A DNA stretch of 64,000 nt from contig NC_092565.1 of assembly GCF_037975245.1 (NCBI RefSeq), positions 23,338,063 to 23,402,062 on the forward strand, in the 5' to 3' direction. Origin of the DNA: Apostichopus japonicus (lineage: Eukaryota). Shown here one piece after another: positions 27,996 to 62,751 of this stretch; the first letter of the stretch is position 1; every line of letters begins with the position of its first letter. The translations under genes and the position numbers were made by a program. The notes below the pieces were generated by a model. The model saw only the letters and a program-made list of their open reading frames with translations. It made no database searches and was not told the origin of the DNA.

Positions 27996-28061
27996 ATATC
28001 GCCACCTAAGACGACTACCAGTTCTGGGGTTGCTGCTATAAGATCTACATTCGGATAAAAC

Positions 28062-34680: not shown

Positions 34681-35133
34681 TCTTGGGATCTGTACAATAA
34701 ACTGTCTACTTTAAATTTGTAGAAAAGTGAATAAGAATTCTTTCTATTAAAGTCTTGGATATTTCTAATATTGAAAACTTTTTGGGCAAAGGAGAAAGAC
34801 CTTTTTATTGACTAGGCAAAGATATCCTATATTGTATCATGGTTTATCTGAAATTGTTCTTTGAAGTGTTAAATTTCTCAGTTTGCTGTTCTAACATTAG
34901 TTCTCACCCATCAACACAGGTCTTCTTGTTAATCTCAGCCTCTTTTTTTTCCTTTCCAAAGAAAGATTCTTAATAAGTTTATAGCTAATTTTTGTTAAAA
35001 CTCAATTTTTTGATGGGTTTCATATCCTTGTAGAGAACAGTAAATGTCTAAGGCTTCCCTAGGAATTAATGTTTAAATGATTTTACTACTGTACCTGAGA
35101 TAAACACCATTTGGTGTTTTGTTTCATTTTCAG

Positions 35134-35328
35134 ATTATGGTCGTTATGGTGATTATTCTCTGTTCGTTGATCCTGGTCATTCTGTACGTATTCGGTGCTC
35201 CTTTCGTTCTCAGTGAGCAAGGATGGTTTCCTTTCATATTTCATATCGTCTTTGGTCATTGGCTGTTTCTCAACACACTGTTCAATTACTACAAAGGGGT
35301 TACAACGCCACCTGGATACCCACCAGCT
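35134..35328 (+). CDS. ZDHHC16: ZDHHC16-like exon 2 (IMVVMVIILCSLILVILYVFGAPFVLSEQGWFPFIFHIVFGHWLFLNTLFNYYKGVTTPPGYPPA)
   Basis: The acceptor is ttcattttcag|ATT and the donor is GCT|GTGAGT. It encodes a transmembrane segment followed by the conserved …YQAITTPPGYPP motif of ZDHHC16. The ORF-track start at 35119 is a TTG, not an ATG. Confidence 0.85.
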
Positions 35329-36589: not shown

Positions 36590-36950
36590 TTTATCTTAAG
36601 GATGACCCGTTGAGTGATCAGACTACCTGTAAATATTATCCCTGTGCGTTACCATGGTAATATGTATTAATTAACATATGCAGTATCATACTTGTTTGTG
36701 GATGATCACTTACAGACACTCAATGGTAGATGGTCTGTTTGCTTCAAGGTATTTTGGTTACAAGTACTTTTTTCCATTTGTCAACCTCTTGGGTGATCAG
36801 ACTACCTGTAAATATTATCCCAGTGCGTTACCATGGTAATATTTCTTAATTAACGTATGCAGTATAATATTTGTTTGTGCATGATCACTTACAGACACCA
36901 GGTGGTAGATGTTCTGTTTGCTTCAAGGTATTTTTGTTTTACTCTTACCA
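36590..36950. repeat. About 185-bp tandem duplication in ZDHHC16 intron 2
   Basis: 36603-36770 matches 36787-36950 (…tgatcagactacctgtaaatattatccc.gtgcgttaccatggtaatat…gatcacttacagacac…ggtagatg.tctgtttgcttcaaggtatttt). Confidence 0.7.
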
Positions 36951-39335: not shown

Positions 39336-39453
39336 GTACTTTCCGATACTAGTGTTGCGACGATATGCAAGAAATGCATCGCTCCTAAGCCACCAAGAAC
39401 TCACCACTGTAGCTTGTGCAATAAATGTGTCCTGAAAATGGATCACCATTGTC
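39336..39453 (+). CDS. ZDHHC16: ZDHHC16-like exon 3 ([39 protein letters not shown])
   Basis: The acceptor is ttccttacag|GTA and the donor is TGTC|GTATCC (phase 1). It is the DHHC cysteine-rich domain and is near-identical to human [34 protein letters not shown]. Confidence 0.9.
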
Positions 39454-39544
39454 GTATCCTTTTAGTTTATATACCATCTGTTGAATAGACAGTGGCTCTT
39501 TGTGAGGTTTTCATTATTGTGAATGTGTTGGCCTACAGTGAACA

Positions 39545-40110
39545 CTCCAAAGCCTACCACCCCCAAAGCCTACCACCCCCAAAGCCTACCACTCCCAAAG
39601 CCTACAACCCCCAAAGCCTACCACCCCCAAAGCCTACCACCCCCAAAGCCTACCACCCCCAAAACCTACCACCCCCAAAGCCTACCACCCCCAAAGCCTA
39701 CCACCCCAAACCTACCACCCCCAAAGCCTACGACCCCCAAAGCCTACCACCCCCAAAGCCTACCACCCCCAAAGCCTACCACCCCCAAAGCCTACCACTC
39801 CCAAAGCCTACAACCCCCAAAGCCTACCACCCCCAAAGCCTACCACCCCCAAAGCCTACCACCCCCAAAACCTACCACCCCCAAAGCCTACCACCCCCAA
39901 AGCCTACCACCCCAAACCTACCACCCCCAAAGCCTACGACCCCCAAAGCCTACCACCCCCAAAGCCTACCACCCCCAAAGCCTACCACCCTCAAAGCCTA
40001 CCACCCCCAAACCCTACCACTCTCAAAGCCTACCACCCCCAAAGCCTACCACCCCCAAAGCCTACCACACCCAAAGCCTACCACTCCCAAACCTACCACC
40101 TCAGTGTTTT
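39545..40110. repeat. 16-bp minisatellite (ccaaagcctaccaccc)n, about 35 units, in ZDHHC16 intron 3
   Basis: It is directly visible. The period is not a multiple of 3, so the three frames give the same 16-aa Pro-rich period (PKPTTPKAYHPQSLPP). This explains ORFs 39492-40121 and 39523-40173. Confidence 0.9.
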
Positions 40111-40649
40111 CATCTAGATGATGTTGTTCATCCAATCCCAATTCTCTGGATTATTTCTTCTCTGCTAAGATAAGGTATTGTTATTGGTCAATTGATCTGA
40201 TTACTTTAGCCTGTCATGTTATACAATGAAAGTTAGGCCAGCCATACTATAGAAACATCTGTAGAAACAGTAGTAATAGTATGTTAGAGATAACTCTATA
40301 CTTTGTGCTAATGTATTTGTAATTGCAGGGTTTTCTTTTGTCTGGATATTCCATGGCTGACTTTTTCTAACTTACAAGAGTATTCAGGTGGATTCACATA
40401 CAGTATTTAATAGAAATTTGCGGATATTTAGGTAGTTTCCGACAAAGTTGTAATAATTAGCGGGCAAAAACTTTCTTGACAATGATTGACTATTTTACTC
40501 TGACTTATGGAATATATGGTGCATGTGTGCTAGAGTGAGCCATTTATATTTAAAATCTGGTAATATTTCCACAAAGTTACCAGGCACTATTCAAAATCAT
40601 ATTTTCCTACTAAACAGAAGGGGAACCACGACTGAGACCACACCCGTAG

Positions 40650-41155
40650 GCTCTATGTATTGCTTTGTGGAGATATAACCTATCTAACACCCGTAGGCTC
40701 TATGTATTGCTTTGTGGAGATATTACCTATCTAACACCCGTAGGCTCAATGTATTGCTTTGTGGAGATACAACCTAACACCCGTAGGCTCTATGTATTGC
40801 TTTGTGGAGATATTACCTATCTAACACCCGTAGGCTCAATGTATTGCTTTGTGGAGATATTACCTATCTTACACCTGTAGGCTGTATCTATTGCTTTGTT
40901 GAGATATTACCTATCTAACACCCGTAGGCTCTTTGTATTGCTTTGTGGAGATATTACCTATCTAACACCTGTAGTCTCTTTGTATTGCTTTGTGGAGATA
41001 TTACCTATCTAACACCTGTAGGCTCTATGTATTGCTTTGTGGAGATATTACCTATCTAACACCCGTAGGCTCTATGTATTGCTTTGTGGAGATATTACCT
41101 ATCTAACACCCGTAGGCTTTATGTATTGCTTTGTGGAGATATTACCTATCGAACA
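40650..41155. repeat. 47-bp minisatellite (tatctaacacccgtaggctctatgtattgctttgtggagatattacc)n, about 11 units, in ZDHHC16 intron 3
   Basis: It is directly visible and explains ORFs 40665-40880 and 41084-41326. Confidence 0.9.
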
Positions 41156-41440
41156 CAACCAGCTCTGTTAATAAAGGTTTTGTTGCTTTCACCTGATAAA
41201 CAACAATCACAGAATATTTGGGGCACAATCGCATCCACACATGTGTGTGATTTCCAGACTCTTGTGATGCTAGCACTGTTACCGTTTGCACTTTCTAAAG
41301 TATATTTGTTATATGAACTAAGTTGAGTATCTTAGACACCCATCTGAAGGATATTCTAGGTATTTCTATGTTTTTTCTACATCAAACTATTCTGGGTTCT
41401 AATCTCATTTGAATTATCTCCTTAATCCTACTTCTTACAG

Positions 41441-41574
41441 CCTGGCTGAACAACTGTGTCGGTCATTTCAACCACCGTTACTTCATATCTTTCTGTATAT
41501 ATATGACTCTTGGTACAGCGTACATTAGCATTTTTATCTGGCCTCTTTTTGCCCGAGAATTTTTTGATGCCAAG
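41441..41574 (+). CDS. ZDHHC16: ZDHHC16-like exon 4 (PWLNNCVGHFNHRYFISFCIYMTLGTAYISIFIWPLFAREFFDAK)
   Basis: The acceptor is cttcttacag|CC and the donor is AAG|GTAGGT. It continues the DHHC domain and matches human PWLNNCVGHYNHRYFFSFCFFMTLGCVYCSYGSWDLFREAY. Confidence 0.9.
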
Positions 41575-42866
41575 GTAGGTTGTTCAATTTAGAAACATGT
41601 ATCTACTGTCTTTCAATGTTCTGGTTAAAATGAATTATTTAGTTACTAATTCTATAAACTTTCTTACTTCAGAAACAACAAGTGCACACAGTGTATTGTA
41701 TCATTGAAAAGAACCTGTAACAAATGTAATTATACTAATAATAATAATTTTTTTTTTAAATTTCCAATTTCCCCAAAGGGTAACATATTTCGCATACCCC
41801 TTTCAAAGAACATTATCTTTCTATAGATGTCTGCATACATTTGATATCATTTCCAATAACTAGTGAAATTTGTCACTTAAGCTCACATTGTGTTTCTCTT
41901 GTATGTCTTAACATAAGATTCAGCTTATAATACAAATTGACAGTTGAATTTTGCTATGTATCATAAACTGAGAGTGACTGTGTAACAATACAGTCATGTA
42001 CTCACACCCGTACCACACTTCACATATCAACACGCAAAATATCTTGCATAGCAGTTTCAGAATGTTATAGCTTGAAATAGATGCAGGCATATAATTGATA
42101 TCACTTTCATGCCATCGACTTGGGAAATCTTCCTCAAGTAAACTCATATGAGGTTAGTCTTGTTCAAATGTTGTTGTGCAATATTTCGATTACAATACAA
42201 AGTGTAATACATTAGTGTTATAAGAATACTTGTATCAACAACCATCTCTGATCTGCATCGATAGTCGAATGGTGCAATAATTGGATAACACATGCATAGG
42301 CGTAGGCGGCTGGGGGGGGGGGGGCTGCAGCCCCCCCCAACCAAAAAATTTTGGGAAAATTCGGGCAATATGCTGAGAATTTTTCGGGCACTTACTCAAA
42401 GAAAAATAATTTGCAATGTGTTTTTCAATGGTTAAACTGATATTATTATGAACATTTTTATTGTACAACTTCCCCAATAATTATAACCAATAGGGATGGG
42501 TAATAACACGGACAATGATTGTATGTTATTGGCATGTGATGTAGTAACCGATTAATGCCTATATGATATGCACATTAACATGTTGGACCCGCACGGAGTG
42601 CGCGAAAATTTTGGGTATATTTTTCGGGCAAGCCGTTACAGCCACCCCAAATCAAATTGGGCTCCTACGCCTATGAACACATGTGATCTTAGCTCACCAT
42701 AAGCAGTAAAAACTCACCACGGAAGAAGGTATCCTTACTACTTAGAAGAATTTTTCATATTGTTATTAATTATTACAACCACTCAGACAAATTAATTGCA
42801 AACCTTCCCTCCCAACTGTTTTCTAAACATTTATTGATCTCTCGTTTTGTTCCTTTGGTTTTGCAG

Positions 42867-42941
42867 AAAACATTCAAAAGCCTTCTTCAAGGGTCGCTGC
42901 TGTTTTATTTCTTGAAATATAACGTCAAAGAACCTGAGTTG
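42867..42941 (+). CDS. ZDHHC16: ZDHHC16-like exon 5 (KTFKSLLQGSLLFYFLKYNVKEPEL), 25 codons, possibly lineage-specific or alternative
   Basis: There is a strong polypyrimidine acceptor ttggttttgcag|AAA and a donor TTG|GTGAGT. Both ends are in phase 0, so the frame is kept between exons 4 and 6. There is no clear counterpart in human ZDHHC16 (TYHQTPPPTFSFRERMTHK region), so the call rests on splice signals and phase only. Confidence 0.5.
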
Positions 42942-43940
42942 GTGAGTTCTCGTTAATATCAAGATTCTATAAAGCAGCTATCTGCTGCTGGCTTAATGAA
43001 CATTTTACCAATCCTACCAAGTTTGCTCCAAGATTACCATTAATGAATTGATTGGTACCTAGCATGTATGTTAAACGGTTATTTTCGATTCCAAACCATT
43101 CATTGTAGATACTGTTGCATGCCATGCAGCAGTTTTAATCACATACAAATGCAAAAGCACTAATCTTAATTTGTTTTAGCGTGTTCTTCCTTTGTGGAAA
43201 TGAAACATGGCTAGTCCAGCTAGTGACCTGAGCTTACGTGGTCATGGCATTTTAGTATCAAATGAGGTCAAATTGACCAAAATCAATGCTAAAAGCTGTC
43301 TTACAGCTATGAGGAGTGGGTCCCTGTCTTCACACAGCCTACTGAGACATTCTATGATGCAAATAGGAGCAATCATCTAGGGTTCAAAAAATACCCAGAA
43401 AGGTTGTTCAGGCTGCAATCCCTTTTTCTGTATAAAGACGTGATTTTGTATAGGTTTGATTTTAATATGGCTATCAGTATCAAGATATGAGAGTTGATAA
43501 GTTTGACAAAGTAAAACGTCTGACTATCCATATTTATGGAGACACTCTGATACATATAATGTAACACAGCATTCTGTCAACTCTATACTACAAGAATCTT
43601 TCTAACACAATGATTGCAACATATTGTGATTTCATTATGAAAGAGTAAAACAATGGTCACTGGATCAAAATAAATAATGTGTACAATAATATGGTTTTAT
43701 TAATTAAAAATAAAACATTTTAGAAAGGTGACTCTGTTTTTTTCAAAATTTTGTAACTTTCATTACAGATTTTCTTGTCAGTGTTCAGGATATAAAGCAG
43801 AATTTATCAGTTTCCATTGAATTAAACTAGATTAATTCCTTGCTCAAGCATCTTTACATTCAGTATAAATACAAATAAAATGAATCATTTGAATCAATTT
43901 GGCCTGATTCTCTCACATAATAGCAAATTTGTATTTTCAG

Positions 43941-44162
43941 GAAGAGAATGTCCCAAGCGGTCACACCCACACCGGTTCATGGACAGACTACGACAGCGTC
44001 CAACACAAAGCCGTCACGTTCCTGTTCTTCCTAACGTTCAGTGTTGTATTGGCTCTAGGAATGTTGACCATGTGGCATGCACGACTGATTAGTAAAGGAG
44101 AGACGAGTATAGAGAAGAATATAAATAACAAAGAGAGAAGACGACTAAAACAGTTAAATGTG
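43941..44162 (+). CDS. ZDHHC16: ZDHHC16-like exon 6 (EENVPSGHTHTGSWTDYDSVQHKAVTFLFFLTFSVVLALGMLTMWHARLISKGETSIEKNINNKERRRLKQLNV)
   Basis: The acceptor is tattttcag|GAA and the donor is GTG|GTGAGT. It matches human …LVYLWFLCSSVALALGALTVWHAVLISRGETSIERHINKKERRRLQAKGRV. Confidence 0.85.
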
Positions 44163-45205
44163 GTGAGTCAATGCTAGACTTTTCAGAATATGGAATTTAA
44201 AATTCTAATATTTTGTTATTATGGATTTTCTTTGTTTCACATATATTTGTAAGCACTTTATTAATACACTACCTGATCAAGTTCTCAAGATAGAGCAAGT
44301 GATCAACAAAAACGAATCACAAGTAATCAACAAAAACGAATCACTAAAATAAATTTTAAATTTTATAAGGTAATTAATTAGTGAAGTAAATGTTGCAATA
44401 AAATTTTCAGAAATGGAATTTTTGATATTTGATGAATGGTTTCTTGACCATCACCAGATAAAAGCTTGGATTTTGTCTGAGTTCAAGCGTCTGTTATCAT
44501 ATTTTAATCAAAGACAGGTATGGACAGCCTGTTAGCAAAGAAATGCGACTTAAAAAGTGTAAGGAATCTTCAACAGTTGGGTATTAACATTTAATGCAGT
44601 ATAATAAGGATTTTGTAGAGGACGAGGCAAGCTATCTCTAATTAGGGCAGACAGTTAAATAATGACTTTAGGTGCAAAATTGATATTGATATGTTGTAAG
44701 TATTGAGAAATCACTCTTTCAACAGATGAGGTTCATCCATTAAAGTGACTGGATGATGCAGTCTAGTACACAGATCATTAGGGACAGTTCCTCAGATGCA
44801 ACACAAACTGCAATGGCAAAACGAGATACTTTGATGGCCTCAAATGACATGTTTACAAATGGCGTCAACGTCATAATCAACTTAGCCTCAAAGTTCTCAT
44901 CATTCCAGAGATTTATCAAACTTTAAAGATGAATATTTTGAAAATGGGAATAGCTAGTTTGAAACATTGATGGCACTCAAATTTATTTATCTTCTTTTGT
45001 GGACTATGACATATCAATACTAAATTGCTATATTCCTTTCACCTGAGATGACTAATAATCTTGCCAGCAAAACCTAGGTTGCAACTGTTTGACCTACACC
45101 AATGTCATTCAGTTTCATGACAAAGAATTGCATATTATGATCAGTTTCATTGGTGGAAATTGATTTGCAATGTCAAGAGTTCTTTCCTTTATTCTTATTT
45201 TACAG

Positions 45206-45276
45206 GAATATAAAAACCCTTATGATTTTGGTTTTAGGCAGAATTGGAGGGACTTACTTGGATTGTCAGAAAAACG
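45206..45276 (+). CDS. ZDHHC16: ZDHHC16-like exon 7 (EYKNPYDFGFRQNWRDLLGLSEKR-)
   Basis: The acceptor is ttattttacag|GAA and the donor is ACG|GTAAGT (phase 2). It matches human FRNPYNYGCLDNWKVFLGVDTGR. Confidence 0.75.
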
Positions 45277-46514
45277 GTAAGTCACATCTATAGTAATAAT
45301 GATAATGATCGTTATCGTCGTAGTTGTTGTCATCAATCATAGTAATACTAATGATCATTTTAAATAGTCCAGCACCTTGCCAGTATAAAGCATCAGATAT
45401 TTATCATTGCTTGAGTAATGACTTGTCTAAAGAAATCAAAAGTTGTGTCAGTTTTAGAGAGATATAAGAAATTTCCAAAAAGTGCTTTTGATACATTCGT
45501 TTTTAAGTTGTTGTGCAGTCTTAATTTGAAAACATAAAGGTTCAGTTTATTTCAATGTAGTTATTTACTCTATAAAATATATGTAAATACCTAGTCATTA
45601 GTAGGCTCGTATAATGTGACAAAATCAAATCGACAGTTTTTAAAAATTTCATTGAATGGAAGCGATCAAGAAGTGAAAAAGTAGAAAAGTGAAAACTCTG
45701 CACTTAGTTTGTAAGGTATGCCTCGGCAGTCGATATTTTAGAACATTTTGAAGGTTTTCATCTTGTTTTTTCATGGTGTAAATGTGATTTAAGACTTTGG
45801 ATGAGTATTTATCTTTAGATATGAATACTCTAAAGACAGCATTATCAGACATTTATGTGTTATTGAAGGGATTCCAGGAATGTTTGCAGAATTCACTCTT
45901 CGCCCTTGTTTCTGCAATGGGTGGGACACTCTGTCCATTCTGGTTTAATATTGATACATTATGAAGAAAAGAAACAAATTCATCAACTTTTCCTTGGTAA
46001 AGTACTAGATCTTCAAAGATGAATACTTTATGAGCTGATTTAATTGTAAACCCAACAAGTTTAAAATTCAAAATAAACAAAAACTATTAGCAAACTGCAT
46101 ATCCACTAGAGAGCCTGTGTAAGAGAATGCGTAAAAGTAAGTGGGCCTGACGATTCAATCCTAGCAGGATGATCTTCTTCAGAGGCTGAGTGACAACTTG
46201 TCATTCAGTCTATGAAGAAGATCCTGCTAGGATCGAAACGTCAGGCCCACTTAATTTTACACAAGGTTTAATTTCTTGAGATTTCTGTATTTGAATAATT
46301 CCATGTTTCAAATGCTACGTCCTAGACTCATGACCCAACTGAATGAACTTATGTACAAATGGTTTGGCTATTTTAACCTCCAATAAATTTCAAAAAGTAA
46401 GAATATCATATCGGAAGAGTCAGAAATGCAGTTTGCCGAAGGAGAGTTTGTTCCTGTTGTTAAGGAAATTCACGTCAAAATTGAATGGGTTTTTGATTTC
46501 GTCAATATTTGTAG

Positions 46515-46638
46515 GACCTTCTGGAGACATATACTTTTTCCTTCATCTCATCCGCCGAACGGAGACGGCATTCACTGGAAAAGAATCCCAACCCCAGGAT
46601 TTGTCACCAAAAATGGAAATTCTTTCCACTCCTGTTGA
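46515..46638 (+). CDS. ZDHHC16: ZDHHC16-like terminal exon (-TFWRHILFPSSHPPNGDGIHWKRIPTPGFVTKNGNSFHSC*)
   Basis: The acceptor is atatttgtag|G, which completes the Arg codon. A TGA stop is at 46636-46638. It matches human HWLTRVLLPSSHLPHGNGMSWEPPPW. The last roughly 65 nt plus the stop are tandemly duplicated immediately downstream (46690-46756). Confidence 0.75.
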
Positions 46639-48055: not shown

Positions 48056-51000
48056 TATTCAACAGTAAAAAGGTGCATTATGTCTGTTTTGACATGGAAA
48101 CAGTGAATTGATGATGACAACATCTACAGCCCCAATTCTTATATTAAGAGAAGGCCCGGCTTTATAGGTCTCTTACAAATTTTAATTGTGGTTATTGTTT
48201 TTCAGCTAAGTGTAATGCATTTTTGTTTCCAGGGTAACAGACTTACTCTGGTAACTAACAAGTATGTTCATTTTCGAAAACATTTCTTGGCGACAAATAG
48301 TATGCCGAGCAAGCAACAGGCAGATTTAAATAGCTTTAGCGTATTGGGATATTGTACCAGCAAATAATCCAGGGGGCAAATAGTTGTTGGAAAAGTAGGT
48401 AAAAAAAAAATACTCGGAGCTCTGGCTATGAAGAGTATTTGTGTAGTTTTATTGTTCCATTCTTGTGAAGTCTAATATTAGTGTTTGATATAAAATTCAT
48501 TTTCAGATGTCTTGTTGCTCAATATGAATAAGCCTGTGACAGATTCACAGTAATGTATGTATCTTGCAGGAAATAGCAGTTTCTAGGACACCTGTTAGGT
48601 TTACAAACTTTGTTTAGCATTAAATAAAGAAATTGATAAGGATCTATGCTCAAAGACCTTACCAATTTTGTCATCTTGCAAAGCCCTTTGAAACACGAAC
48701 CAGGTAAATTGTTACACATTTTCATCTCGGTTTATTCATTCCAAATTTTGATACAAAGTATAAAAAAAACTGCAGTTTTTTCGGTTGGGTGGGGGGGGGG
48801 CAGTCTAAAACCCCTTGGATCAAATTGATGACTAATATGAGTATCAAAGTTGTGATCTGTAAGAGACTACAATGCATCACTAATTGATAATGCTACCTAC
48901 TGACTTGTGCTCAGTATAATGTTCTTCTTGATAAATCCTTGAAACCGGGTAAATTTGGAATGTTTGCTCAGCTGTCAATGTTTTTTGTATTTATGAGATT
49001 TATCAAAATGCATCTTTTGTAGAAATATTCTTTTCCTGTAACGATAAATTTATTGTAATATTATTAAGAAATACAAAGACATTTTCAGCTGAAGTGCCGT
49101 GATGGCATCAGTCATTCTGCTGTGGCCAGATACATTAAGCAAATATCACAAACTTTGTATACAATTCAGATCTTCTTGATTCAAAATGCTATTAGGATGA
49201 GGTTTTTTGTCGTATTAAAGGTGCCAACATTTTCAACAATCATGCTAACCAATCAACTGCAGCCACCAGAAATTCTTTTTAATTATTAGTTTGTTAGAAA
49301 ATAATATACATTACATATGGATTTTAAATCTGGTGTTAAATTGTGAAACAGACGGCAATCTGAAGATAAGTTAAATGAATAAACTAAAAGTGATAGTTTT
49401 TGGATCTGTCATGTTTCCCTGCCATGTTTTTTTATTTGTGATTTGATTATAGAAATGTTTTTAGCCAGAAAGTTAGTTTTGGTGTATCACTGTCTAGCAA
49501 AGACACAAATTATGTTAGAAGATTATGTTGTGAAGTTTTCTGCACCATACTTGGGAGTGAATGTGCTGGTCTCATCATTTCTGTCTCTGTGTGTGAACAG
49601 ACAGCTCTCAGTGTCTAAATTGCAGCTCCCTGGTATAAAGAAGTCAATTTATTGTGCATCTATTATTGGCTTTGGTGCTATATCATACACTGATGGTTGC
49701 GGTCTTCAATGTCCCATAATGCAACAGTCCGCAGATTATTTTCAGTAGGTCACAAGACTTTTCAAGAATGTCAGAAAGTTATCTAGTTTTCAGAACTTGT
49801 GATAGATTAGGTTACTTGATTTAACAACCAGTCCACAATCTAAGCTAGTTTTCATGCATTGTGAGCATTAATTCTCAAAGTGGCTGGTCCGTGGCTCGTT
49901 CCGGATGGAATATCCTGGGTCATGGGACTAAAAGTTTGCCGCCTGCTATTGTAAGGTATCTGTATTAATTTGTGCTTTAATCCATTCTTTCATTCAACTT
50001 TTTTTTGTGATTTGCCAAATTACTTTCAGTTGCAAAAAAGTTAACATAAAGTGGAATGTGAAAAGGTTGATTCATTTATTTATTTTAATGTGGGCACAAT
50101 GACTGAACAGACTTGATTACTTTGTAGTGGTAACAAAGGGGGGAGGGGAAGGCGTCAATATGGTTTGATCGCTGAAAAAGGTGCAATGTACATTGATAAA
50201 TAATCTAAGAAATTGAAGGGCAGTGTAATTTAAAAAAAAAAAATGATGTATTGTTTAGCTGAATCAGATTATTGATTTTAATATGCTGTTAAAGCAGTAA
50301 AATAGATTTTGATCAGTAGATTTTATTACTTTCTTGCCAATTATTAAGGTCTTTATGTAACTTGGTTTGTTTTAACGACTATGTTTATAAAGACAGGGTC
50401 TTGCTCTTCCTGGAATTGTCTCCAGAAATCATGTACCCTCCTAGGACTGTCCTGGAAATAAGGGTATAAAGATCTTTGTATAATTTCAGTGTGTAAATGC
50501 ACATTTTTAATCATCTTTCTTCATGAACTGCAGTTTCCCCAGTTTAAAGGTACTGTGTTCATTTGGGGGAAGTATCAAAAAGATCAATCGATTTATGGAA
50601 TTGATTACTGCCACCACCAAAGCATTAAGATCCCTGCTGAGACATTTCTCTTATCCAAAATCCTAAATGAATTTGACGGTTGGAATTTCCAGAAATGGAC
50701 ATTTGAAATGCTTTCAGATATACTTTTTATGATGGTAATTTTTGGTAATTTAGTGCCAATAGTAAAGACTGTCAAAATCCTGCTCATTTGATATTTAACG
50801 TCCATGTGAGATGTAAAAATGTATTGAAGTGTCTAGAAGCACTAAACAGCTCTCACTAAAATGACATTTGATTTCTTTATGGAAGGTAACCCACAAAGTA
50901 CAAAACAACAACTGACCAAAGAGGATACTTTTCACGTTTTTCTTTTCAAATTGTAAATTTCAACAGCACAAGCTCTTGATTTGGTGCGTAGCGTTAATTG

Positions 51001-54000
51001 TAAACAATGTAGAGAGGAACGTACTGCTTTCTGATTCTTTAGGAATTTGACTTATATTAGAGATCAAGATTATCGCCATCAATACTGTGGTGTCACAATA
51101 AGGAATGGACCGGGGGCGTTTGCGGGGGAGAGGGACCGGAGGAGGGTATTCTTGTACTCATGTATAATGGTGTTTCAAATCATGTGCTTGATTTTCTTTT
51201 GTATGCTATCCGGAATCAGCTGTATAATTTGTTTGCATAACCTTTTATGCTCAAATGACAAAATACTTGAGTATAATTTGTATTTGTATTAAATCTGTAT
51301 AATTGAGTACAAGGAAAAATCTTGTTTTTATTTCCCCGTGTCTGAAAAACTACTGCCATTCCAGTTTTTTGCAGCTTAATGTTTAAACAGAAATACGAAG
51401 TAACTGACATTTAAACCCATTTGTATTCATTGTTCATTATTTAAATTGGTATGTTATATGAAGGTTTGGTTTTTAATCCCCTGCTGAAATCCCTGTTTCT
51501 CCTCGTGTTAAAAAAAAGTCTGAGATAGCCACTTGACATAAGTACAGTTCTCACTAATCCTGACAGCAAAGTCAGCAAGAAAGCAAAATGTCTGTATCAT
51601 TAATGATTACAAAACAGTCAATTAAGGACAGACGATGAGAATCATATGTTACAAACATTTATTCTATCAAGTTTGAATTTCTGAAAGTGAAAAATATTAC
51701 AAAGGGAAAGGTTTGCAAAATATGATTAAAAGACTGTACATTTTCATTGACGAAAATGGGTAAATTACAGAATAGAAAAGGTAGTGAGAAATACTGTTTC
51801 ATCAAATTATCTATTAGTAACATGAGTTATGGGTGACAAAGGCCTAATTAGAGAGGGAGGGGCTTTCAGCCCCTGGGCCTGATGTCAATCTGGTGAAATA
51901 TGGGGAAATAAAAGTATGTATGTATTTCTCATTTTCAAGATAATGATGAATACAGGAACTACATGAGAAAAAAAAAAGTAATTTCTCACAGCGTCAAACC
52001 AGTATTGACAATTTGACGATACAACGTAATGGCATTTATACTGTGCCTCCAGTCACCACTGTGGCGCCCAAATATTCAAGAAAAGTCAAAATTACAGTGA
52101 TAAGTATTCAAACTTTAAAGAAGCGTTATGGCCACTCTCTAATGCATTTTAGCTTGCTTAGAATCTTTTCCTCCTACTAATTTAAGTCTTCTTTGATGTT
52201 TTAGGAACAACTTAACAGATTTAATACAATCTCTTTTGAGCAATCTCTGTCTTGCTAAAATTTAGAAAGGGAAATAGTTCTGTGGATGCTCTCATATAAA
52301 TCCTTAAGGAAAAGCATTACTTTTGTTAAGTCACCAAGACACTAAATGTATCACTGAATATTAAATACATCTTGATAGTAATCAGATAAATCATAACCGG
52401 CTATTCTGCACACCTATCAAAAACATGCAAGATATTCAAATTTGATTATAAATATGCATATTTGTTCTCAGTTCAAAAGCAGCCATTGTAATAATCAGTT
52501 AGTACACAAACCTATTATAAATAGAAGTTCTCAAACAACTGATACACAAACAACACAAGCCCACTGCTTCAAGGTACTTATATTAAGACAAGTCTTTCTA
52601 TTCTTTTAAATAAATGAATGAATTTTTTTTCTGAGTTCTCATATGTAAATTAATTAACTCTTGTTAAAGAACAACAAAAAAACTGGAGACAGTCATTATG
52701 AGAGTACTTCAAAAGAAGTATTTTGTAAATTAGAAAGAATTTCATCACGGGATAGTGATATACTGTACATTCTGATTCAAACTATGGAAGATGTGATCCT
52801 TGTAACTACCTAGCCGACCGCAAACCTCAAATTTGTGGGAGGAATTTCGGGAAGTTTATTAGTCTGCATGGATAATTTTGTCTGTGTAAAAAAGGGTATT
52901 TTCTGATGAACCAGAGCTTACTTGCAAATTTACTTAAACATCGATTTACAAAAAAACACTCTTATTATACAAAACAAAAAAAGCTTGAAAGTAAATTAAC
53001 TATGCTTTGGTAACAAGTAATGGTCTACTGTATGAAAGATAATGTTATTTGAATATTTACATGAATGTAGTGAATAGTATTTGAAGTAACTTCAACAGGT
53101 AGTCCCACATCTCTCACTAAATGTTGAACATTCTTCTCCAGTTTTAAAAGGGCCATAGAGAAACATTTGTTGTGCAAATTGCAAGACAGATTAAAAAACC
53201 TCAGCAAACCTAGATTGACAAATTTACATGCTAGGCCAATAGGGCGACTCAACCCCCAGATCTTGCAGGCCTGCACAATGGATTTTTCGCAGGATTGTGG
53301 GTCATTTTCCCCCCTCCATTTTGGAGGGTGGGGAGGCAGGCAGACCAAGATTGAAAACTCACAGATTTGACCCGTGATGTGCATTGAATACAAATCAAGT
53401 TGAGGAGAACTGCACATTTGTAGGAGAGAGTTCATAGTTTAGCACTTTGATTTGCTTTATTTAAGACTACTGCTACATAAATACAAAACCATGTTCAATT
53501 CTAATCTGCCACAAAATGTTGCAGCTTTGAGCAAAATATAAAGATACCTGATTTAATCAAGACAACCGCCATCTTGCAACCCCCTCCTAGTTCCCTATCA
53601 ATTTCAATCTCCAATTGCAATCGATTGCTATCAAACATTTTAAGTTTAAAAATCTAGTGGTAGAAGACCAAGGTGATTAAATCAACATTTTAATGAATTA
53701 TTCAGTGAATTCTATTACTAACATTTTTTTTTTCTACTTTGCTAATTTCTTTATTTAATCAATTATTAAAAGGAATCATTTTAGAATTTCAGACAGAAAA
53801 TGTTCCAAACTTGAGGAATGGTATACTGACAATTAACAAGTCAAGTGGGCATTGTTAGTTTTACATAAATATCATTAACTAAAGAATGTAGCTATGGTTA
53901 TGAAAGAGAAGAGCTGCATTATTTTCATTACCCATACAGAAAATGGAACAGCCTGATGGAATTCAAATGTATCATTTTTGGTTTTCCTTAATGTTAACGA

Positions 54001-54652
54001 GTTTATGCTTCATGAGTGAATAACCAGATCTAAGTTGAAAATTTAGTAGTAATTCTTAATTTTTTATGATATCCACCCACATCTTAGTTGCTAGGAATTA
54101 CAAGATGACCATGACAGCTTAGAATAAAGAAGGCAGCCTTTCACTGTGTTAGTAGAACCAATGGATGCTTCTTCATGTTCACTGTATGAAGTTCAGTTTA
54201 AGCTTTTAATATAAAATACTACCTTGTTGAGGTAATCACATTCCAAATTTGAGTCTGTTAAATAACAAAGCTTTTTTTGTGTTGCGTTTGCCAACATTCT
54301 GGTTGTCAGACACATTAACCTTGAAAGGACATATCAAAGTACAGAACATTATAAGACTATTAATTATGTTACTTTGGTCAACCAAACTTGCACCAAGAGT
54401 GACAAAATTAGCCTGCACTCCAATTAACATCCCTTAACATCCAACACCCCTTGAACGTTCTGAACTGTTTCATACTGTAATGAAACAGTTTACAACATTA
54501 AAGAAATACTTCATTGGCTGAAGTTGCTTGTTAATAAAAAAGTGTCCAATATTTTCTGCATCAATTTGTCAAAACAACATCCTCATAGCATTTTGTATGA
54601 CAAAGATGTGAATTTTTCAAATTTGGTAATATTTTGTGAAATGAATCCTATT
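48056..54652. repeat. Tandem segmental duplication, copy 1 (about 6.6 kb)
   Basis: It is colinear with 54653-61573. Long stretches were compared by eye: 48058-48700 versus 54653-55290 are about 97% identical, 50490-51500 versus 57540-58500 about 90%, and 52000-54440 versus 58960-61400 about 96%. The junction is …gtgaaatgaatc|ctattcaacagtaaaaagg. Confidence 0.85.
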
Positions 54653-57600
54653 CAACAGTAAAAAGGTGCATTATGTCTGTTTTGACATGGAAACAGTGAA
54701 TTGACAATGACAACATTTACAGCCCCAATTCTTATATTAAGAGAAGGCCTGGCTTTATAGGTCTCTTACAAATTTAATTGTGGTTATTGTTTTTCAGCTA
54801 AGTGTAATGCATTTTTGTTTCCAGGGTAACAGACTTACTCTGGTAACTAACAAGTATGTTCATTTTCGAAAACATTTCTTGGCGACAAGTAGTATGCCGA
54901 GCAAGCAACAGGCAGATTTAAATAGCTTTAGCGTATTGGGATATTGTACCAGCAAATATTCCAGGGGGCAAATAATTGTTGGAAAAGTAGGTAAAAAAAA
55001 ATACTCGGAGCTCTGGCTATGAAGAGTATTTGTGTAGATTTATTGTTCCATTCTTGTGAAGTCTAATATTAGTGTTTGATATAAAATTCATTTCCAGATG
55101 TCTTGTTGCTCAAAATGAATAAGCCTGTGACAGATTCACAGTAATGTATGTATCTTGCAAGAAATAGCATAGTTCTAGGACACCTTTTAGGTTTACAAAC
55201 TTTGTTTAGCATTAAATAAAGAAAGGATTTATGCTCAAAGACCTTACCAATTTTGTCATCTTGCAAAGCCGTTTGAAACACGAACCAGGTAAATTGTTAC
55301 ACATTTTCATCTCGGTTTATTCATTCCAAATTTTGATACAAAGTAAAAAAAAAACTGCAGATTTTTCGGTGGGGTGGGGGGGGGGCAGTCTAAAACCCCT
55401 TGGATCAAATTGATGACTAATATGAGTATCAAAGTTGTGGTCTGTAAGAGACTACAATGCATCACTAATTGATAATGGTACCTACTGACTTATGCTCAGT
55501 ATAATGTTCTTCTTGATAAATCCTTGAAACTGAGTAAATTTGGGATGTTTGCTCAGCTGTCAATGTTTTTTGTATTTAAGAAATTCATCAAAATGCATCT
55601 TTTTGTAGAAATATTCTTTTCCTGTAAGGATAAATTTATTGTCATATTATTAAGAAATACAAAGTCATTTTCAGCTGAAGTGCCGTGATGGCATCAGTCA
55701 TTCCGCTATGGCCAGATGCATTAAGCAAATATCACCAAATTTGTAAACAATTCAGATCTTCTTGATTCAAACTGCTATTAGGATGAGGTTTTTTGTCGTA
55801 AGGTGCCAACATTTTCAACAATCATGCTAACCGATCAACTTCAGCCACCAGAAATTCTTTTTAATTATTAGTTTGTTAGAAAATAATATACATTACATAT
55901 GGATTTAATAATATACATTACATATGGATTTTAAATCTGGTGTTAAATTGTGAAACAGATAGCAATCTGAAGATAAGTTAAATGAATAAACTAAAATTGA
56001 CTTGTGTTTGGAACAGTCATGTTTCCCTGCCATGTTTTTTGATTTGTGAATTGATTAAAGACATGATTTAAGCCAGAAAGTTAGTTTTGGTGTGTCACTG
56101 TCTAGCTAAGACACAAATTATGTTAGAAGGTTATGTTCTGAAGTTTTCTGCACCATACTCGGGAGTGAATGTACTGGTCTCATCATTTCTGTCTCTGTGT
56201 GTGAACAGAGAGCTGTCAGTGTCTAAATTGCAGCTCCCTGGTATAAATAAGTCTTAAAGTCAATTTATTGTTCATCTATTGGCTTTGGTGCTATATCATA
56301 CACTGATGGTTGTTGTCTTCATTAATCCCGTAAGGCAACAGTCCACAGACTACTTTCAGTAGGTCACGAGACTTTTCAAGAATGTCAGGAATTCATCTAG
56401 TTTTCAGAACTTATAGATTAGGTTACTTGAGTTAACATCCAGTCCACAATCTAAGCTAGATCACTTCTCAGACTTTTGGCTAAGATTATGTGTAATATCT
56501 GTTCCCTTTCAAGGGGAATGGTGATGCACACCCGACGATGATCACACACTCACAGTCCCGATGCAAGGGGACTGGGGTTGAGAGCGGATCAGTCGTTTGC
56601 TAGTTTGATTTTTCGTGCCCTTGGGGTCTTTCCTGGGTGACTATTCTTAAAAAGTATCTAAGCTAGTTTTCCTGCATTCTGAGCATTCATTCTCAAAGTG
56701 TTGGGTCGTGGCTCGTTCCAGACTCAGTATCCTGGGTCATGGGACTAAAAGTTTGCTGCCTGCTATTGTAAGGTATATGTATTAATTTGTGCTTTAATCC
56801 ATTCTTTCATCTAACTTTTTTTGTAATTTGCCATATTACTTTCAGTTGCAAAAAAGTTAACACAAAGTGGAATGTGAAAAGGTTGATTTATTTATTTATT
56901 GTAATGAGGGCACAATGACTGTACAGACTTGATTACTTTGTAGATTGGTATTATAAGTAGCATATTTTGTTGAGGGGGTTGTGACAGGAGAGCGGTAACA
57001 AAGGGCGAAGGGTAAGGGGGGGGGGCATCAATATGGTTTGATCGCTGAAAAAGGTGCAATGTACATTGATTAATATTCTAAGAAATTAAAGGGCAGTGTA
57101 ATTTTAAAAAAAAATCATGTATTGTTTAGCTGAATCAGATTATTGATGTTAATATGCTGTTAAAGCAGTAAATCAGTTTTTGATCAGTAGATTTTATTAC
57201 TTTCTTGCCAATTATTAAGGTCTTCATGTAACTTGGTTTGTTTTAGGAAGTTGCTTATAAAGACAGGGTCTTGCTCGTCCTGGAATAGTCACCGGAATGC
57301 ATGTACCCTCCCAGGACTGTCCTGGAACTTGTCAAAACATAATGAATAATTTATATTTTACCTTCGAATAATTTCAATTATATTTAAACTATTATTTGGA
57401 AAGATCACTTGATGGTAATCAGTTATTATTTACTACTACAATGTTCATAAGTTCATCCACACTTGCAGATAACAGAATAAAGATCTTTGTATAACTTCAC
57501 TGTGTAATTCACATTTTAATCATCTTTGTGAATTGGCTGAAGTTTCCCCAGTTAAAACGTAGTGTGTTCATTTGCAGGGAAATGTCAAAATGATCAATGG

Positions 57601-60600
57601 ATTTATGGAATCCATTACTGCCACCACCAATGCAGTTATATTATCCAAAATCCTAAATAAATTGGACAGTTGGAATTTCCAGAAAAGTACATTTGAAAAG
57701 CTTTCAGATTTACTTATTATTATGGTAAAATTTAGTGCCAATAGTGAAGACTTTGTCAAAATCCTGCTCATTTAATATAAAAGTCCATGTGCAATGTGAA
57801 TGGTAATGTACTGTCTAGAAGCACTATACAGTTCTCACTAAAATGAAATTTGATTTCTTTATGGAAGGTAACCCACAAAGTACAAAACAACAACTGACCA
57901 GAGGATTTTCACGTTTTTCTTTTCAAATTGTAAATTCCAACAGCACAAGCTCTTGATTTGGTGCGTAGCATTAATTGTAAACAATGTAGAGAGGAACATA
58001 CTCCTGTATATTTCTTTAGGATTTTGACTTGTACAAGAGATCAAGATTATTGCCATTAATACTGTGGTGTCACAATAAGGAATGGACCAGGGGGGGGGGG
58101 GGAGGGAGCGGAGGAGGGTATTCTTGTACTCATGTATAATGGTGTTTCAAATCATGTGCTTGATTTTCTTTTGTATGCTATCCGGAATCAGCTGTATAAT
58201 TTGTTTGCATAACCTTTTATGCTCAAATGACAAAATACTTTGTATAATTTGTATTTGTATTAAATCTGTATAATTGAGTACAAGGAAAAATCTTGTTTTT
58301 ATTTCCCCGTGTCTGAAAAACTACTGCCATTCCAGTTTTTTGCAGCTTAATGTTTAAACAGAAATACGAAGTAACTGACATTTAAACCCATTTGTATTCA
58401 TTGTTCATTATTTAAATTGGTATGTTATATGAAGGTTTGGTATTTACTCCCCTGCTGAAATCCCTGTTTCTCCTTGTGTTAAAAAAAAGTCTGAGATAGC
58501 CACTTGACATAAGTACAGTTCTCACTAATCCTGACAGCAAAGTCAGCAAGAAAGCAAAATGTCTGTATCATTAATGATTACAAAACAGTCAATTAAGGAC
58601 AGACGATGAGAATCATATGTTACAAACATTTATTCTATCAAGTTTGAATTTCTGAAAGTGAAAAATATTACAAAGGGAAAGGTTTGCAAAATATAATTAA
58701 AAGACTGTACATTTTCATTGACAAAAATGGGTAAATTACAGAATAGAAAAGGTAGTGAGAAATACTGTTTCATCAAATTATCTATTAGTAACATGAGTTA
58801 TGGGTGACAAAGGCCTAATTAGAGAGGGAGGGGCTTTCAGCCCCTGGGCCTAATGTCAATCTGGTGAAATATGGGGAAAATAAAAGAATGTATGTATTTC
58901 TCATTTTCAAGATAATGATGAATACAGGAACTACATGAGAAAAAGAAATTAATTTCTCACAGCTTCAAACCAGTATTGACAATTTGACGATACAACGTAA
59001 TGGCATTTATACTGTGCCTCCAGTCACCACTGTGGCGCCCAAATATTCAAGAAAAGTCAAAATTAGTGATAAGTATTCAAACTTTAAAGAAGCATTTTAC
59101 GGCCACCCTCCAATGCATTTTAGGTGCTTTCCTCCTACTAATTTAAGTTTACTTTGATGGTTTAGGAATAACTTAGCAGATTTAATACAATTGCTCTTCT
59201 TGCCAAAATTTGGTGGAAAGGGTAATAGTTCTGTGGATGCTCTTTATGCATAAATCCTCAAGGAAAAGCATTACTTTTGTTAAATCACCAAGACACTAAA
59301 TGTATCACTGAATATTAAATATATCTTGATATTTAATCAGATAAATCATAACCGGCTATTCTGCACACCTATCAAAAACATGCAAGATATGCGTATTCAA
59401 ATTTGATTGTAAATATGCATATTTGTTCCCATTTTAAAAGCAGCCATTGTAATAATCAGTTACACAAACCTATTATAAATAGAAGTTCTCAAACAGCTGA
59501 TACACAAACAACACAAGCCCACTGCTTCAAGGTACTTATATTAAGACGAGTCTTTCTATTCTTTTAAATAAATGAATGAATTTTTTCTGAGTTCGCATAT
59601 GTAAATTAATTAACTCATGTTAAAGAACAGAAAAAAAAAAAAAATAACTGGAGACAGTCATTATGAGAGTACTTCAAAAGAGGTATTTTGTAAATTAGAA
59701 AGAATTCCATTACGGGATAGTGATATACTGTACATTCTGATTCAAACTAAGGAAGATAATGTGATCCTTGTAACTACCTAGCCGAACGAGAACCTCAAAT
59801 TTGTGGGAGGAATTTCGGGAAGTTTATTAGTCTGCGTGGATAAGTTTGTCTGTGTAAAAAAGGGTATTTTCTGATGAACCAGAGCTTACTTGCAAATTTA
59901 CTTAAACATCGATGTACAAAAAAACACTCTTATTATACAAAACAAAACAAGCTTGAAAGTAAATTAACTATGCTTTGGTAACAAGTAATGGTCTACTGTA
60001 TGAAAGATAATGTTATTTGAATATTTACATGAATGTAGTGAATAGTATTTGAAGTAACTTCAACGGGTAGTCCCACATCTCTCACAAAATGTCTAACATT
60101 CTTCTCCAGTTTTAAAAGGGCCATAGAGAAACATTTGTTGGTGCTAATTGCAAGACAGATTAAAAAATCAGCAAACCTAGATTGACAAATTTACATGCTA
60201 GGCCAATAGGGCGACTCAACCCCCAGATCTTGCAGGCCTGCACAATGGATTTTTTTCCGCAGGATTGTGGGTCATTTTCCCCCTCCATTTTGGAGGGTGG
60301 GGAGGCAGGCAGGCCAAGATTAAAAACTCACAGATTTGGGCCGTGATGTGCATTGAATACAAATCAAGTTGAGGAGAACTGCACATTTGTGGGAGAGAGT
60401 TAATAGTTTAGCACTTTGATTTGCTTTATTTAAAAGACTACTGCTACATAAATACAAAACAATGTAAAAGTCTAATCTGTCACAAACTGTCGCAGCTTTG
60501 AGCAGAATATAAAGATACCCGATTTAATCAAGACAACCGCCATCTTGCAACCCCCTCCCTAGTTCCCTATCAATTTCAATCTCCAATTGCAATTGATTGC

Positions 60601-61573
60601 TATCAAACATTTTAAGTTTAAAGATCTAGTTGTAGAAGACCAAGGTGATTAAATATACATTTTAATGAATTATTCACTGAATTCTATTACCAACATTTTT
60701 CTTTTCTACTTTGCTAATTTCTTTATTTAATCGATTATTAAAAGGAATCATTTTAGAATTTCAGACAGAAAATGTTCAAAACTTGAGGAATGGTATACTG
60801 ACAATTAACAAGTCAAGTGGGCATTGTTAGTTTTACATAAATATCATTAACTAAAGAATGTAGCTATGATTATGAGAGAGAAGAGCTGCATTATTTTCAT
60901 TACCCATACAGAAATTGGAACAGCCTGATGGAATTCAAATGTAACTTTTTTGGGTCTCCTTAATGTTAATGATTTTATGCTTCATAAGTGAATAACCAGA
61001 TCTAAGTTGAAAATTTAGTAGTAATTCTTAATTTTTTATGATATCCACCCACATCTTAATTGCTAGGAATTACAAGATGACCATGACAGCTTATGCTAAA
61101 GAAGGCAGCCTTTCACTGTGTTAGTAGAACCAATTGATGCTTCTGCATGTTCAATGTTTGAAGTTCAGTTTAAGCTTTTAATATAAAATACTACCTTGTT
61201 GAGGTAATCACATTCCAAATTTGAGTCTGTTAAATAACGAAGCTTTTTTGTGTTGCGTTTGCCAACATTCTGGTTGTCAGACACATTAACCTTTAAAGGA
61301 CATATCAAAGTACAGAACATTATAAGACTATTAATTATGTTACTTTGGTCAACCAAACTTGCACCAAGAGTGACAAAATTAGCCTGCACTCCAATTAACA
61401 TCCCTTAACATCCAACACCCCTTGAACGTTCTGAACTGTTTCATACTTTTGCTTTTTAATAAAAAAGTGTCCAATATTTTCTGCATCAATTTGTCAAAAC
61501 AACATCCTCATAGCATTTTGTATGACAAAGATGTGAATTTTTCAAATTTGGTAATATTTTGTGAAATGAATCT
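54653..61573. repeat. Tandem segmental duplication, copy 2 (about 6.9 kb; carries extra insertions at 56460-56655 and about 57300-57480)
   Basis: As for copy 1. It ends at …ttgtgaaatgaatc|tggcaacagcag, where homology to the unit start is lost. Confidence 0.85.
56460..56655 (+). mobile_element. 196-bp retroposon whose first 46 nt are U2-snRNA-like (ATCACTTCTCAGACTTTTGGCTAAGATTATGTGTAATATCTGTTC), flanked by an 11-bp TSD atctaagctag; present only in copy 2 of the 6.6-kb tandem duplication
   Basis: It matches the U2 snRNA 5' end (ATCGCTTCTCGGCCTTTTGGCTAAGATCAAGTGTAGTATCTGTTC) at about 38/46 positions, starting exactly at nt 1. The remainder is not U2. It has a short A-rich 3' end (ttcttaaaaagt). 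The target site atctaagctag is duplicated (56449-56459 and 56656-56666). The paralogous site in copy 1 (about 49838-49848) is unoccupied. Confidence 0.55.
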
Positions 61574-62198: not shown

Positions 62199-62751
62199 CT
62201 AATTCCAGCATTCCTCTAAATCTTTCATATCTTCGTCCTTGCTCACGTTGACGTTGCTTGTTACATCCGAGGACGACATCTCGGAAAATTTATTAACCAG
62301 GCTTTTCCTGTTGTTCTTTGCTTTATTGTTCAATTCAGAAGTGGAAATCCCTACTCTTTGAAGGGCTTCTAATAATTCTGTCGGGTTGAATGGGGGAGGG
62401 GACATTTGTGGGTCCAGGGTAACTTCATCCTCGGCAGGGGTACCGGTGGGGGTCTTTGGATTATTCAGAGGTATGCGTACGGCGAGAGAAGACTTTCCCG
62501 GAGTGAACTTAGCTGCAATGCTGGCGTACGATGGAGGGGCATTGTTATTAAGCGGTTGGATTGCACAGGGTACCTTGCTGTTGTCCTCTTGTCCAACTGT
62601 GAGCGGTGAAGCAGATCTACTGCCCTCGTGACTGGCAGTCAAACCGGAACTGACCGATGAGGTTACTGAGGTGTCCAGAGAGGACACCTCCTGGTCCATT
62701 GGGTGGTCATTCTCAGAGGAGATATCAGACCCGGTATCACTACTCAGCAGT
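62199..62751 (-). CDS. 3'-terminal exon of an unidentified Ser/Thr-rich protein with a PPxY motif (…LLSSDTGSDISSENDHPMDQEVSSLD…NAPPSYASIAAK…TELLEALQRVGISTSELNNKAK…DLEECWN*)
   Basis: A long ORF lies on the minus strand with a TAG stop at 62199-62201. A candidate acceptor ttctttttcctag|A sits at 62751. The frame is continuous with the candidate upstream exon at 63497-63637 (AG+A=Arg). I do not recognise the family. Confidence 0.5.

Follow-up and report, generated by a model that had tools for sequence, protein, structure and literature searches.

A 64,000-nucleotide (nt) stretch of the genome of the sea cucumber Apostichopus japonicus (contig NC_092565.1, positions 23,338,063 to 23,402,062 of the forward strand), hereafter the window, contains at 56460-56655 an insertion that we interpret, with a probability of roughly 85%, as one copy of an A. 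japonicus family of short, non-coding, non-autonomous retroposons in which nt 1-45 of U2 small nuclear RNA (snRNA) are joined, as a head, to an unrelated body. The whole U2-body chimera is the unit that moves, and all copies stem from one founding fusion. A retroposon family, not a one-off chimera, is indicated because the breakpoints and the A30T change within the U2-derived head are identical in three independent insertions: the window copy, a full-length copy in contig MRZV01000209.1 of the published A. japonicus assembly (denoted L001), and a third copy on a 1.3-kb Logan contig (L004, SRR32534852). Coordinates without a contig name are those of the window.

The insertion and the site that it occupies are delimited by the following features, the paralogous empty site lying in the other unit of a segmental duplication.

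56449..56459, no strand: left target-site duplication (TSD) ATCTAAGCTAG, a perfect 11-mer
56460..56504, plus strand: head, U2 snRNA nt 1-45 (Rfam RF00004, 35.1 bits; 39/46 ungapped)
56505..56655, plus strand: body and tail, without detectable U2, tRNA, 5S or 7SL similarity and without poly(A)
56656..56666, no strand: right TSD ATCTAAGCTAG, a perfect 11-mer, seen in the alignment gap
49838..49848, no strand: empty pre-integration site, a single ATCTAAGCTAG, in the paralogous unit (probe match and alignment)
48056..54647, no strand: duplication unit 1, without the element (self-BLAST; global alignment, 95.2% identity at aligned sites)
54649..61572, no strand: duplication unit 2, with the element (self-BLAST and global alignment)

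Alignment of the two paralogous regions, copy 1 (49600-50100) against copy 2 (56210-56910), contains one clean gap of 207 columns, corresponding to the 196 bp of the insertion plus one 11-mer, and in the global alignment this gap is the largest indel between the two units. The 11-mer occurs exactly three times in the window, at 56449-56459, 56656-56666 and 49838-49848, against 0.02 occurrences expected by chance, and a 38-nt probe ending in ATCTAAGCTAG matches the paralogue at 49811-49848. The first-pass annotation of this region had described a 196-bp insertion between perfect 11-bp direct repeats (total span, 56449-56666), with the empty site preserved in copy 1; the alignment reproduces the insertion, the two flanking 11-mers are identical, and the site at 49838-49848 is intact. 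The insertion is non-coding, all six frames containing stops and no open reading frame (ORF) being present, and it is not bounded by terminal inverted repeats.

The insertion opens exactly at U2 nt 1. In the ungapped comparison with U2 nt 1-46, 39 of the 46 positions match at 56460, whereas the next-best 46-mer on either strand of the window reaches only 25 (mean 11.9, standard deviation 2.9), so that the U2-like 5' end, previously put at about 38/46 from nt 1, aligns to U2 far better than random sequence does. A permissive Rfam scan of 56300-56800 (501 bp) detects the U2 model with 35.1 bits (E=1.8e-5) and with only model positions 1-45 really aligned; this score falls short of the gathering score (46), and the scan of the whole window at gathering thresholds was empty, with no U2. 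The head comprises stem-loop I, GCUAAGAU, and the branch-site-pairing region.

Additional copies were sought by searching the six-frame translation of the 196 bp against protein collections and examining the contigs of matching proteins at the DNA level. The only match, the C-terminal 55 residues of an A. japonicus 'gastrin/CCK-B receptor-like' protein (P0121), leads to the L001 copy, which is antisense at L001 11277-11468 and identical to the window copy at 177 of 195 positions (91%). It starts with TCGCTTCTCGG..., as the window copy does, and carries a 13-bp TSD, ATTCTA[T/A]ATGCAC, with one mismatch. Its head matches U2 nt 1-46 at 43 of 46 positions and scores 50.9 bits in Rfam (E=2.5e-9), above the gathering score; the branch-site-pairing GUAGUA is intact in this copy and reads GUAAUA in the window copy. 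A HMMER scan of 1.84 billion protein representatives with the element's 37-residue open antisense frame matched a Logan ORF (P0197) encoded on L004, where a copy 77-79% identical lies at ~745-931 and shares with the others the start TCGCTT, A30T and the GTTCC/C junction. All three copies start at U2 nt 1-2, have an identical junction between U2 nt 45 and the body, and carry the non-canonical A30T (judged against reference U2). Their flanks are unrelated to each other, with no repeat common to them. Provided that L004 comes from the same species, the 9-23% spread among the copies indicates a family with a long history. The exact k-mer and junction patterns of the element were absent from metagenome contigs, viral contigs, and bacterial and archaeal genomes, as expected for an animal repeat.

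The first-pass annotation had left a SINE (short interspersed element) and a unique template-switch chimera side by side, to be told apart by other copies in the genome. Two such copies now exist at unrelated loci, and the fixed junction, start and A30T favor the SINE-like family over the unique chimera. The contrary notion, that the copies are independent chimeric retropseudogenes formed from the same two abundant RNAs, or that the window holds a chimera unique to this locus, is very improbable. snRNA/L1 and snRNA/Alu chimeras of this general kind do exist in mammals: as summarized in PMC4494074, U6, U2 and U1 sequences have been found fused to L1, Alu or mRNA (Buzdin 2002; Garcia-Perez 2007), and these products of a LINE (long interspersed element) reverse transcriptase resemble the present element in joining an snRNA 5' end to unrelated sequence between TSDs. 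That only three copies are in hand is a further point in favor of such an origin. However, to judge from that summary, each snRNA retropseudogene is a single event with a breakpoint of its own and a poly(A) tail, whereas here the same chimera, lacking poly(A), recurs at three or more loci, the three at hand having the U2 nt 45/body breakpoint, the start of the body and A30T identical in all and the end identical in two; independent events would differ in these respects. The 9% to 23% divergence is likewise that expected of a family with a history.

Spread at the DNA level, as a U2 snRNA gene, a variant or pseudogene of it, or a DNA transposon of the miniature inverted-repeat type (MITE), is hardly credible. 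It is true that annotation pipelines would call the L001 copy U2, its score exceeding the Rfam gathering threshold for that family. Yet a bona fide U2 snRNA gene is ~188 nt long, and only nt 1-45 are present here, without stem-loops IIa-IV or an Sm site; the window copy stays below the gathering score (35.1 < 46); the flanks of the copies are unrelated; the TSDs, at 11 and 13 bp, are long and differ in length between copies; and there are no terminal inverted repeats, which excludes a MITE.

Because L001 11393-11469 scores above the Rfam U2 gathering score, Infernal-based annotation will count such copies as U2 snRNA genes, which inflates snRNA gene counts as far as the better-preserved copies are concerned. 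In the A. japonicus genome paper, where the scan was run at E<0.01, the snRNAs number 223.

Downstream of the head, the Rfam alignment collapses after nt 45, and no Rfam family was found in the body, which bears out the earlier description of this part as unrelated sequence. The body is ~150 nt long, with a GC content of 46% compared to 34% in the flanks. Scans of the window and L001 copies gave no other Rfam match with an E-value below 0.8 and no tRNA, 5S or 7SL match at E<=10, and ARAGORN found no tRNA. The body is predicted to fold into a series of hairpins:

56501..56519, plus strand: hairpin 1, GTTCCC-TTTCA-AGGGGAAT, across the U2/body junction (folds of both copies and three-sequence consensus structure)
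56553..56574, plus strand: hairpin 2, CAGTCCC-GATGCAAG-GGGACTG (predicted folds and consensus structure)
56615..56641, plus strand: 3' hairpin, GCCCAGG-TTCTTT-CCTGGGC in the better preserved L001 copy, with a 3-4-nt bulge in the window copy
56640..56655, plus strand: inverted repeat ACTATTCTTAAAAAGT (ACTTTT-CTTA-AAAAGT in L001) at the very terminus, the true 3' end, without poly(A)

Hairpins 1 and 2 belong to an internal 26-nt direct repeat, D1 (56501-56526 and 56555-56580, 73% identical, spaced by 54 nt), a GTYCCC...GGGGA hairpin being formed by each of its two copies. The final bases of the U2 head are included in the first of these, an overlap that may mark microhomology used in joining head and body. 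In the three-sequence consensus, the stem of hairpin 1 is invariant and its loop variable, and hairpin 2 includes one compensatory change, from C-G to U-A, in the L004 copy (alignment columns 99/110). The fold of the L001 copy, at -74.7 kcal/mol, is clearly more stable than those of its shuffles (z=-3.57). At the 3' end, the window and L001 copies share the conserved pair of hairpins ending in ACTTTTCTTAAAAAGT, and their last 12 nt, TTCTTAAAAAGT, are identical and directly abut each TSD. The first-pass annotation described a short A-rich tail here, but its A5 run is no remnant of poly(A): TTCTTAAAAAGT represents the 3' arm and loop of the conserved terminal hairpin. The 3'-terminal sequence that the tail of a partner LINE would match is GTGCCCAGGTTCTTTCCTGGGCGACTTTTCTTAAAAAGT.

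Several candidate identities of the body and its tail were rejected. A tRNA-like, 5S or 7SL body is ruled out by the Rfam scans and ARAGORN, and a ribozyme or other Rfam family by the Rfam scans of the window and L001 copies. Derivation of the body from the 3' half of U2 is contradicted by the collapse of the Rfam alignment and the absence of an Sm site and of stem-loops III/IV, and poly(A)-dependent mobilization of the L1 type by a conserved 3' end that is not poly(A).

These features fit integration by a LINE-type machinery, the TSDs varying in length (11 bp with the empty site preserved, 13 bp in L001) as expected of LINE-type staggered nicks. An RNA extending from the U2 transcription start to ...ACUUUUCUUAAAAAGU would be reverse-transcribed at a staggered chromosomal nick (target-primed reverse transcription) by a LINE-encoded endonuclease/reverse transcriptase. 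Because poly(A) is absent and the terminal double hairpin is conserved, this enzyme probably reads the 3' structure, in a 'stringent' LINE-SINE partnership in which the paired 3' hairpins, instead of a poly(A) tail, would be recognized; the 3' hairpin is, from its predicted fold, the candidate recognition element for the partner reverse transcriptase. Stringent-type tRNA-derived SINEs have LINE-derived stem-loop tails (for example, those with CR1, L2 or RTE partners). The element resembles them in lacking poly(A) and in having a conserved 3' stem-loop, a short defined end and TSDs of variable length; it differs from them in that the head is U2 rather than tRNA, 5S or 7SL, in the absence of A and B boxes, and in that transcription by RNA polymerase III (pol III) is unlikely.

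Pol III appears an unlikely source of the RNA because T runs lie inside the element (T4 at 56474-56477, in the U2 part, and T5 at 56609-56613) and the head is not of the tRNA, 5S or 7SL type; in this respect the element is not a canonical pol III SINE. U2 promoters are external and depend on RNA polymerase II (pol II), and hence dispersed copies would lack a promoter; those like the window copy are probably dead on arrival. The source that we prefer would be a single master copy, or a small number of them, read by pol II from a promoter lying upstream, and the most economical master would be a U2 gene interrupted just after nt 45-52. Such a U2-gene master would explain why the RNA starts exactly at +1 and why it is not polyadenylated.

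A number of observations weigh against this overall interpretation. Only three copies are in hand, one of which, L004, stems from a Logan run that may not be A. japonicus, ends differently on the 3' side (GACTTGTCGG...) and shows no clear TSD. BLAST and nhmmer detected no further or truncated copy, either in the other ~60 kb of the window or in the other ~25-30 kb of non-overlapping DNA in L001-L003. The fold of the window copy, a decayed one, is not significantly better than those of its shuffles (z=-1.58), and the three compensatory pairs of the consensus structure, coming from only three sequences, are suggestive only. Among the tails compared, those printed for the echinoderm Utopia families, there was no partner LINE with a matching 3' end, and the master copy driven by a U2 promoter is something that we purely infer.

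The Utopia families are of interest here because U2 genes are the target of Utopia and Keno LINEs, which enter them within GUAGUAU/CUGUUCU (PMC4640811), that is, in the U2 stretch that the element shares: the nick, at nt 39/40, falls inside GUAGUAUCUGUUCU, and the upstream junctions of these LINEs carry U2 5' sequence. The family might be a non-autonomous derivative of such a U2-gene-targeting, Utopia- or Keno-like LINE, its head being the target's upstream half together with the TSD, an origin that we consider possible and put forward tentatively. The accompanying proposition, that the RNA arises by transcription reading through from the external U2 pol II promoter while the enzyme, with relaxed specificity, now integrates elsewhere, is doubtful to a similar degree. 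Utopia is documented in echinoderms (two sea urchins and one starfish), with the 3' flank starting at CTGTTCTTTTACG, that is, U2 nt 40 (PMC4640811 text, S1 Fig), and some U2-targeting families insert outside U2 genes at U2-like sites. The head reaches U2 nt 45, possibly ~nt 52 when compared with echinoderm-type U2 (CTGTTCCCTTTCG vs CTGTTCTTTTACG), although the similarity over nt 46-52 is only 4/7; it accordingly ends 6-13 nt past the Utopia/Keno nick, which is the size of the element's own TSDs (11 and 13 bp). The mobilizers of the crocodilian SINEU retroposons, Tx1-Mar, cluster with the U2-targeting Keno, and the exact +1 start without poly(A) fits an snRNA-type pol II transcript. Furthermore, the well-preserved 3' junctions, those of the window and L001 copies, read AGTAT(T)CT, like U2 nt 35-41 (AGUAUCU), but this motif is limited to these two copies and is absent from L004. 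Other facts are harder to reconcile with this origin. None of the three copies lies inside a U2 gene; LINEs of the Utopia and Keno kind are autonomous, several kb long and protein-coding; the echinoderm Utopia tails in S1 Fig (...AATAAA, ...AATAAACCAC) are unlike the ...TTCTTAAAAAGT of the element; and elements with a restriction-like endonuclease rarely leave TSDs of 11-13 bp at non-target sites. The relation of the element to U2-targeting LINEs is hypothetical.

The alternative is that the head was acquired in a single ancestral template switch, in which a LINE reverse transcriptase passed from a LINE- or SINE-derived RNA onto U2 snRNA, followed by amplification of the chimera as a master driven by a flanking promoter, as in Kojima's model for SINEU-1J. 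This, too, is possible without being probable, and we regard it and the origin from a U2-targeting LINE as equally open. A template switch is the published explanation of the crocodilian SINEU heads, and microhomology at the junction is consistent with it: within D1, the body module GTCCC... resembles the U2-derived GTTCCC... module, and this likeness could have guided a switch or recombination. However, known snRNA chimeras usually start at the snRNA 3' end, or have variable breakpoints and poly(A) tails, and the model has to postulate that the switch took place inside U2, at nt 45, and leaves transcription from exactly U2 nt 1 unexplained.

The closest known counterparts of the element are the SINEU retroposons, which have U1 or U2 heads, TSDs of ~10 bp and internal oligo-T taken to exclude pol III, and which were reported from crocodilians only, none having been detected elsewhere by Kojima 2015 (PMC4494074). 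Our literature searches on SINEU and snRNA-headed SINEs, in which Repbase and Dfam were not covered, likewise turned up none outside crocodilians, and the rarity of U2-derived SINEs asserted in the first-pass annotation agrees with that searchable literature. Like crocodilian SINEU-1J, the element is a short (196 bp, well within 500 bp), non-coding and non-autonomous retroposon with a short U2 5' head (35.1 bits in the window copy, 50.9 bits in the L001 copy) on an unrelated body of unknown origin. As in SINEU, it has been amplified as a unit with a fixed junction (here, at n=3) and flanked by TSDs of ~10 bp, contains internal oligo-T and no recognizable pol III promoter, the transcription of SINEU itself being unexplained, and, as for SINEU-1, no partner LINE with a matching tail has been identified. 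By contrast, its host is an echinoderm (a holothurian) instead of a crocodilian, and there is no sign of mobilization by Tx1-Mar, of a preferred target repeat, or of stacked U1/U2 additions. The 3' ends differ as well: all SINEU groups have a poly(A) tail, whereas the only A5 run here is a hairpin 3' arm, and two of the three copies end in the double hairpin ...ACTTTTCTTAAAAAGT. The element works like SINEU and fits the structural definition of SINEU except for the tail. Its origin is very probably independent of that of crocodilian SINEU. The phylum is new; the phenomenon of U2-headed SINEs itself is known. In the A. japonicus genome paper, unclassified repeats make up 18.9% of the genome.

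As a rule, the head of a SINE provides an internal pol III promoter; snRNA-headed SINEs are exceptions, and an independent U2-headed family in an echinoderm would mean that this architecture arises repeatedly. With its exact +1 starts, its lack of poly(A) and one clean, dated insertion whose empty site is preserved, the family is a second system in which a master copy and a partner LINE can be looked for. The combined proposal, that no snRNA-headed SINE family was known outside crocodilians before this one, that its head comes from a U2-gene-resident master at the Utopia/Keno site and not from a random template switch, and that this master is transcribed from the external U2 pol II promoter, is rather unlikely when taken as a whole. 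If true, a U2-gene-resident master would give a concrete answer to the question of how SINEU-type elements are transcribed, and 'promoter-hitchhiking' pol II SINEs originating from site-specific LINEs would form a class of their own. Presence or absence of such insertions of the family could, moreover, serve as markers in a commercially farmed species.

The age of the window copy can be judged from the duplication in which it resides. The duplication is tandem, with ~6.6 kb per unit in self-BLAST, and the units are ~92-93% identical by BLAST. As the first-pass annotation proposed, the insertion most parsimoniously arrived after this duplication, because retroposons, to our knowledge, do not excise and the paralogous empty site is intact in the other unit. 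Where the window and L001 copies differ, five cases are CpG sites that have turned into CpA/TpG in the window copy, which holds 6 CpGs compared to 11 in L001 and has thus lost 5 of 11; judged against U2 and the L001 copy, the derived changes sit on the window copy. Apart from CpG sites, the two copies differ by roughly 10 substitutions and, near the 3' hairpin, by a stretch rich in indels; these differences are split between the two lineages and are compatible with an age below the total divergence of the duplication, 4.8%.

Another indel between the units, a 141-bp, AT-rich segment at 57328-57468 (compared with 50457/50458), lies ~670 bp downstream of the SINE and has no recognizable TSD. Nowhere else are the units as diverged as between the SINE and this indel, where BLAST gives 83.6% identity.

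The L001 copy has left a trace in protein annotation, where it figures as a C-terminal coding exon of a G protein-coupled receptor (GPCR) gene model. In that model, PIK55588.1 (P0121), the last ~55 codons and the stop come from the antisense SINE copy (L001 11277-11443), and the match to the 7tm_1 domain (residues 46-229) ends at profile position 189 of 260. Either the GPCR is truncated or mis-annotated in this model, or the SINE has been exonized.

The insertion in the window is intergenic, located between ZDHHC16 and an SLBP-like gene:

33971-46638, plus strand: ZDHHC16, eight exons (the hand-spliced protein of 372 amino acids equals the annotated length)
62199-62699, minus strand: last exon of the SLBP-like gene

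An intron of ZDHHC16 contains two tandem-repeat arrays, at 39492-40173 and 40640-41156, the first of which has long plus-strand open frames of PKPTTPKAYHPQSLPP-like repeats and a strong negative GC skew (-0.24).

ORF stretches rich in proline and glycine (e.g., PPHPPKWRG, PPVPTPL) are common to window 53025-53435 and 60216-60386, L001 7676-8221, and L002 3498-3920. Judged by eye, these four places represent one unclassified interspersed repeat, which, if it is one repeat, occupies three independent loci in ~110 kb. Two of these ORFs were scanned against Pfam with no match, a chimeric protein query including three of them gave no match to them, and a chimeric query of window, L001 and L002 ORFs returned no A. 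japonicus repeat proteins.

In the published MRZV assembly, this region is 98-99% identical to the window (a difference of 1-2%) but separated from it by numerous indels, so that the window represents a different A. japonicus assembly or haplotype; the insertion site is estimated to correspond to about 756 kb on MRZV01000214.1. At window ~27016-27023, upstream of a luciferase-like gene, the MRZV haplotype has ~5.2 kb of extra DNA (L002 3749-8977) with several adjacent same-strand ORFs (120-173 amino acids) that have no Pfam match; this stretch is probably a polymorphic transposable-element insertion.

The luciferase-like gene is one of two inverted genes for Renilla-luciferase-like proteins (haloalkane-dehalogenase fold), at 20153-22020 on the minus strand and 28062-29961 on the plus strand. 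Joined, the ORFs at 28062-28487 and 29275-29961 give a Renilla-luciferase-like protein with 100% identity over 305 amino acids to an A. japonicus protein at NCBI. The first exons of the two genes are 97% identical in DNA (21535-21866 vs 28060-28391) and the second exons only 69%, and this confinement of the identity to exon 1 suggests gene conversion or a recent partial duplication.

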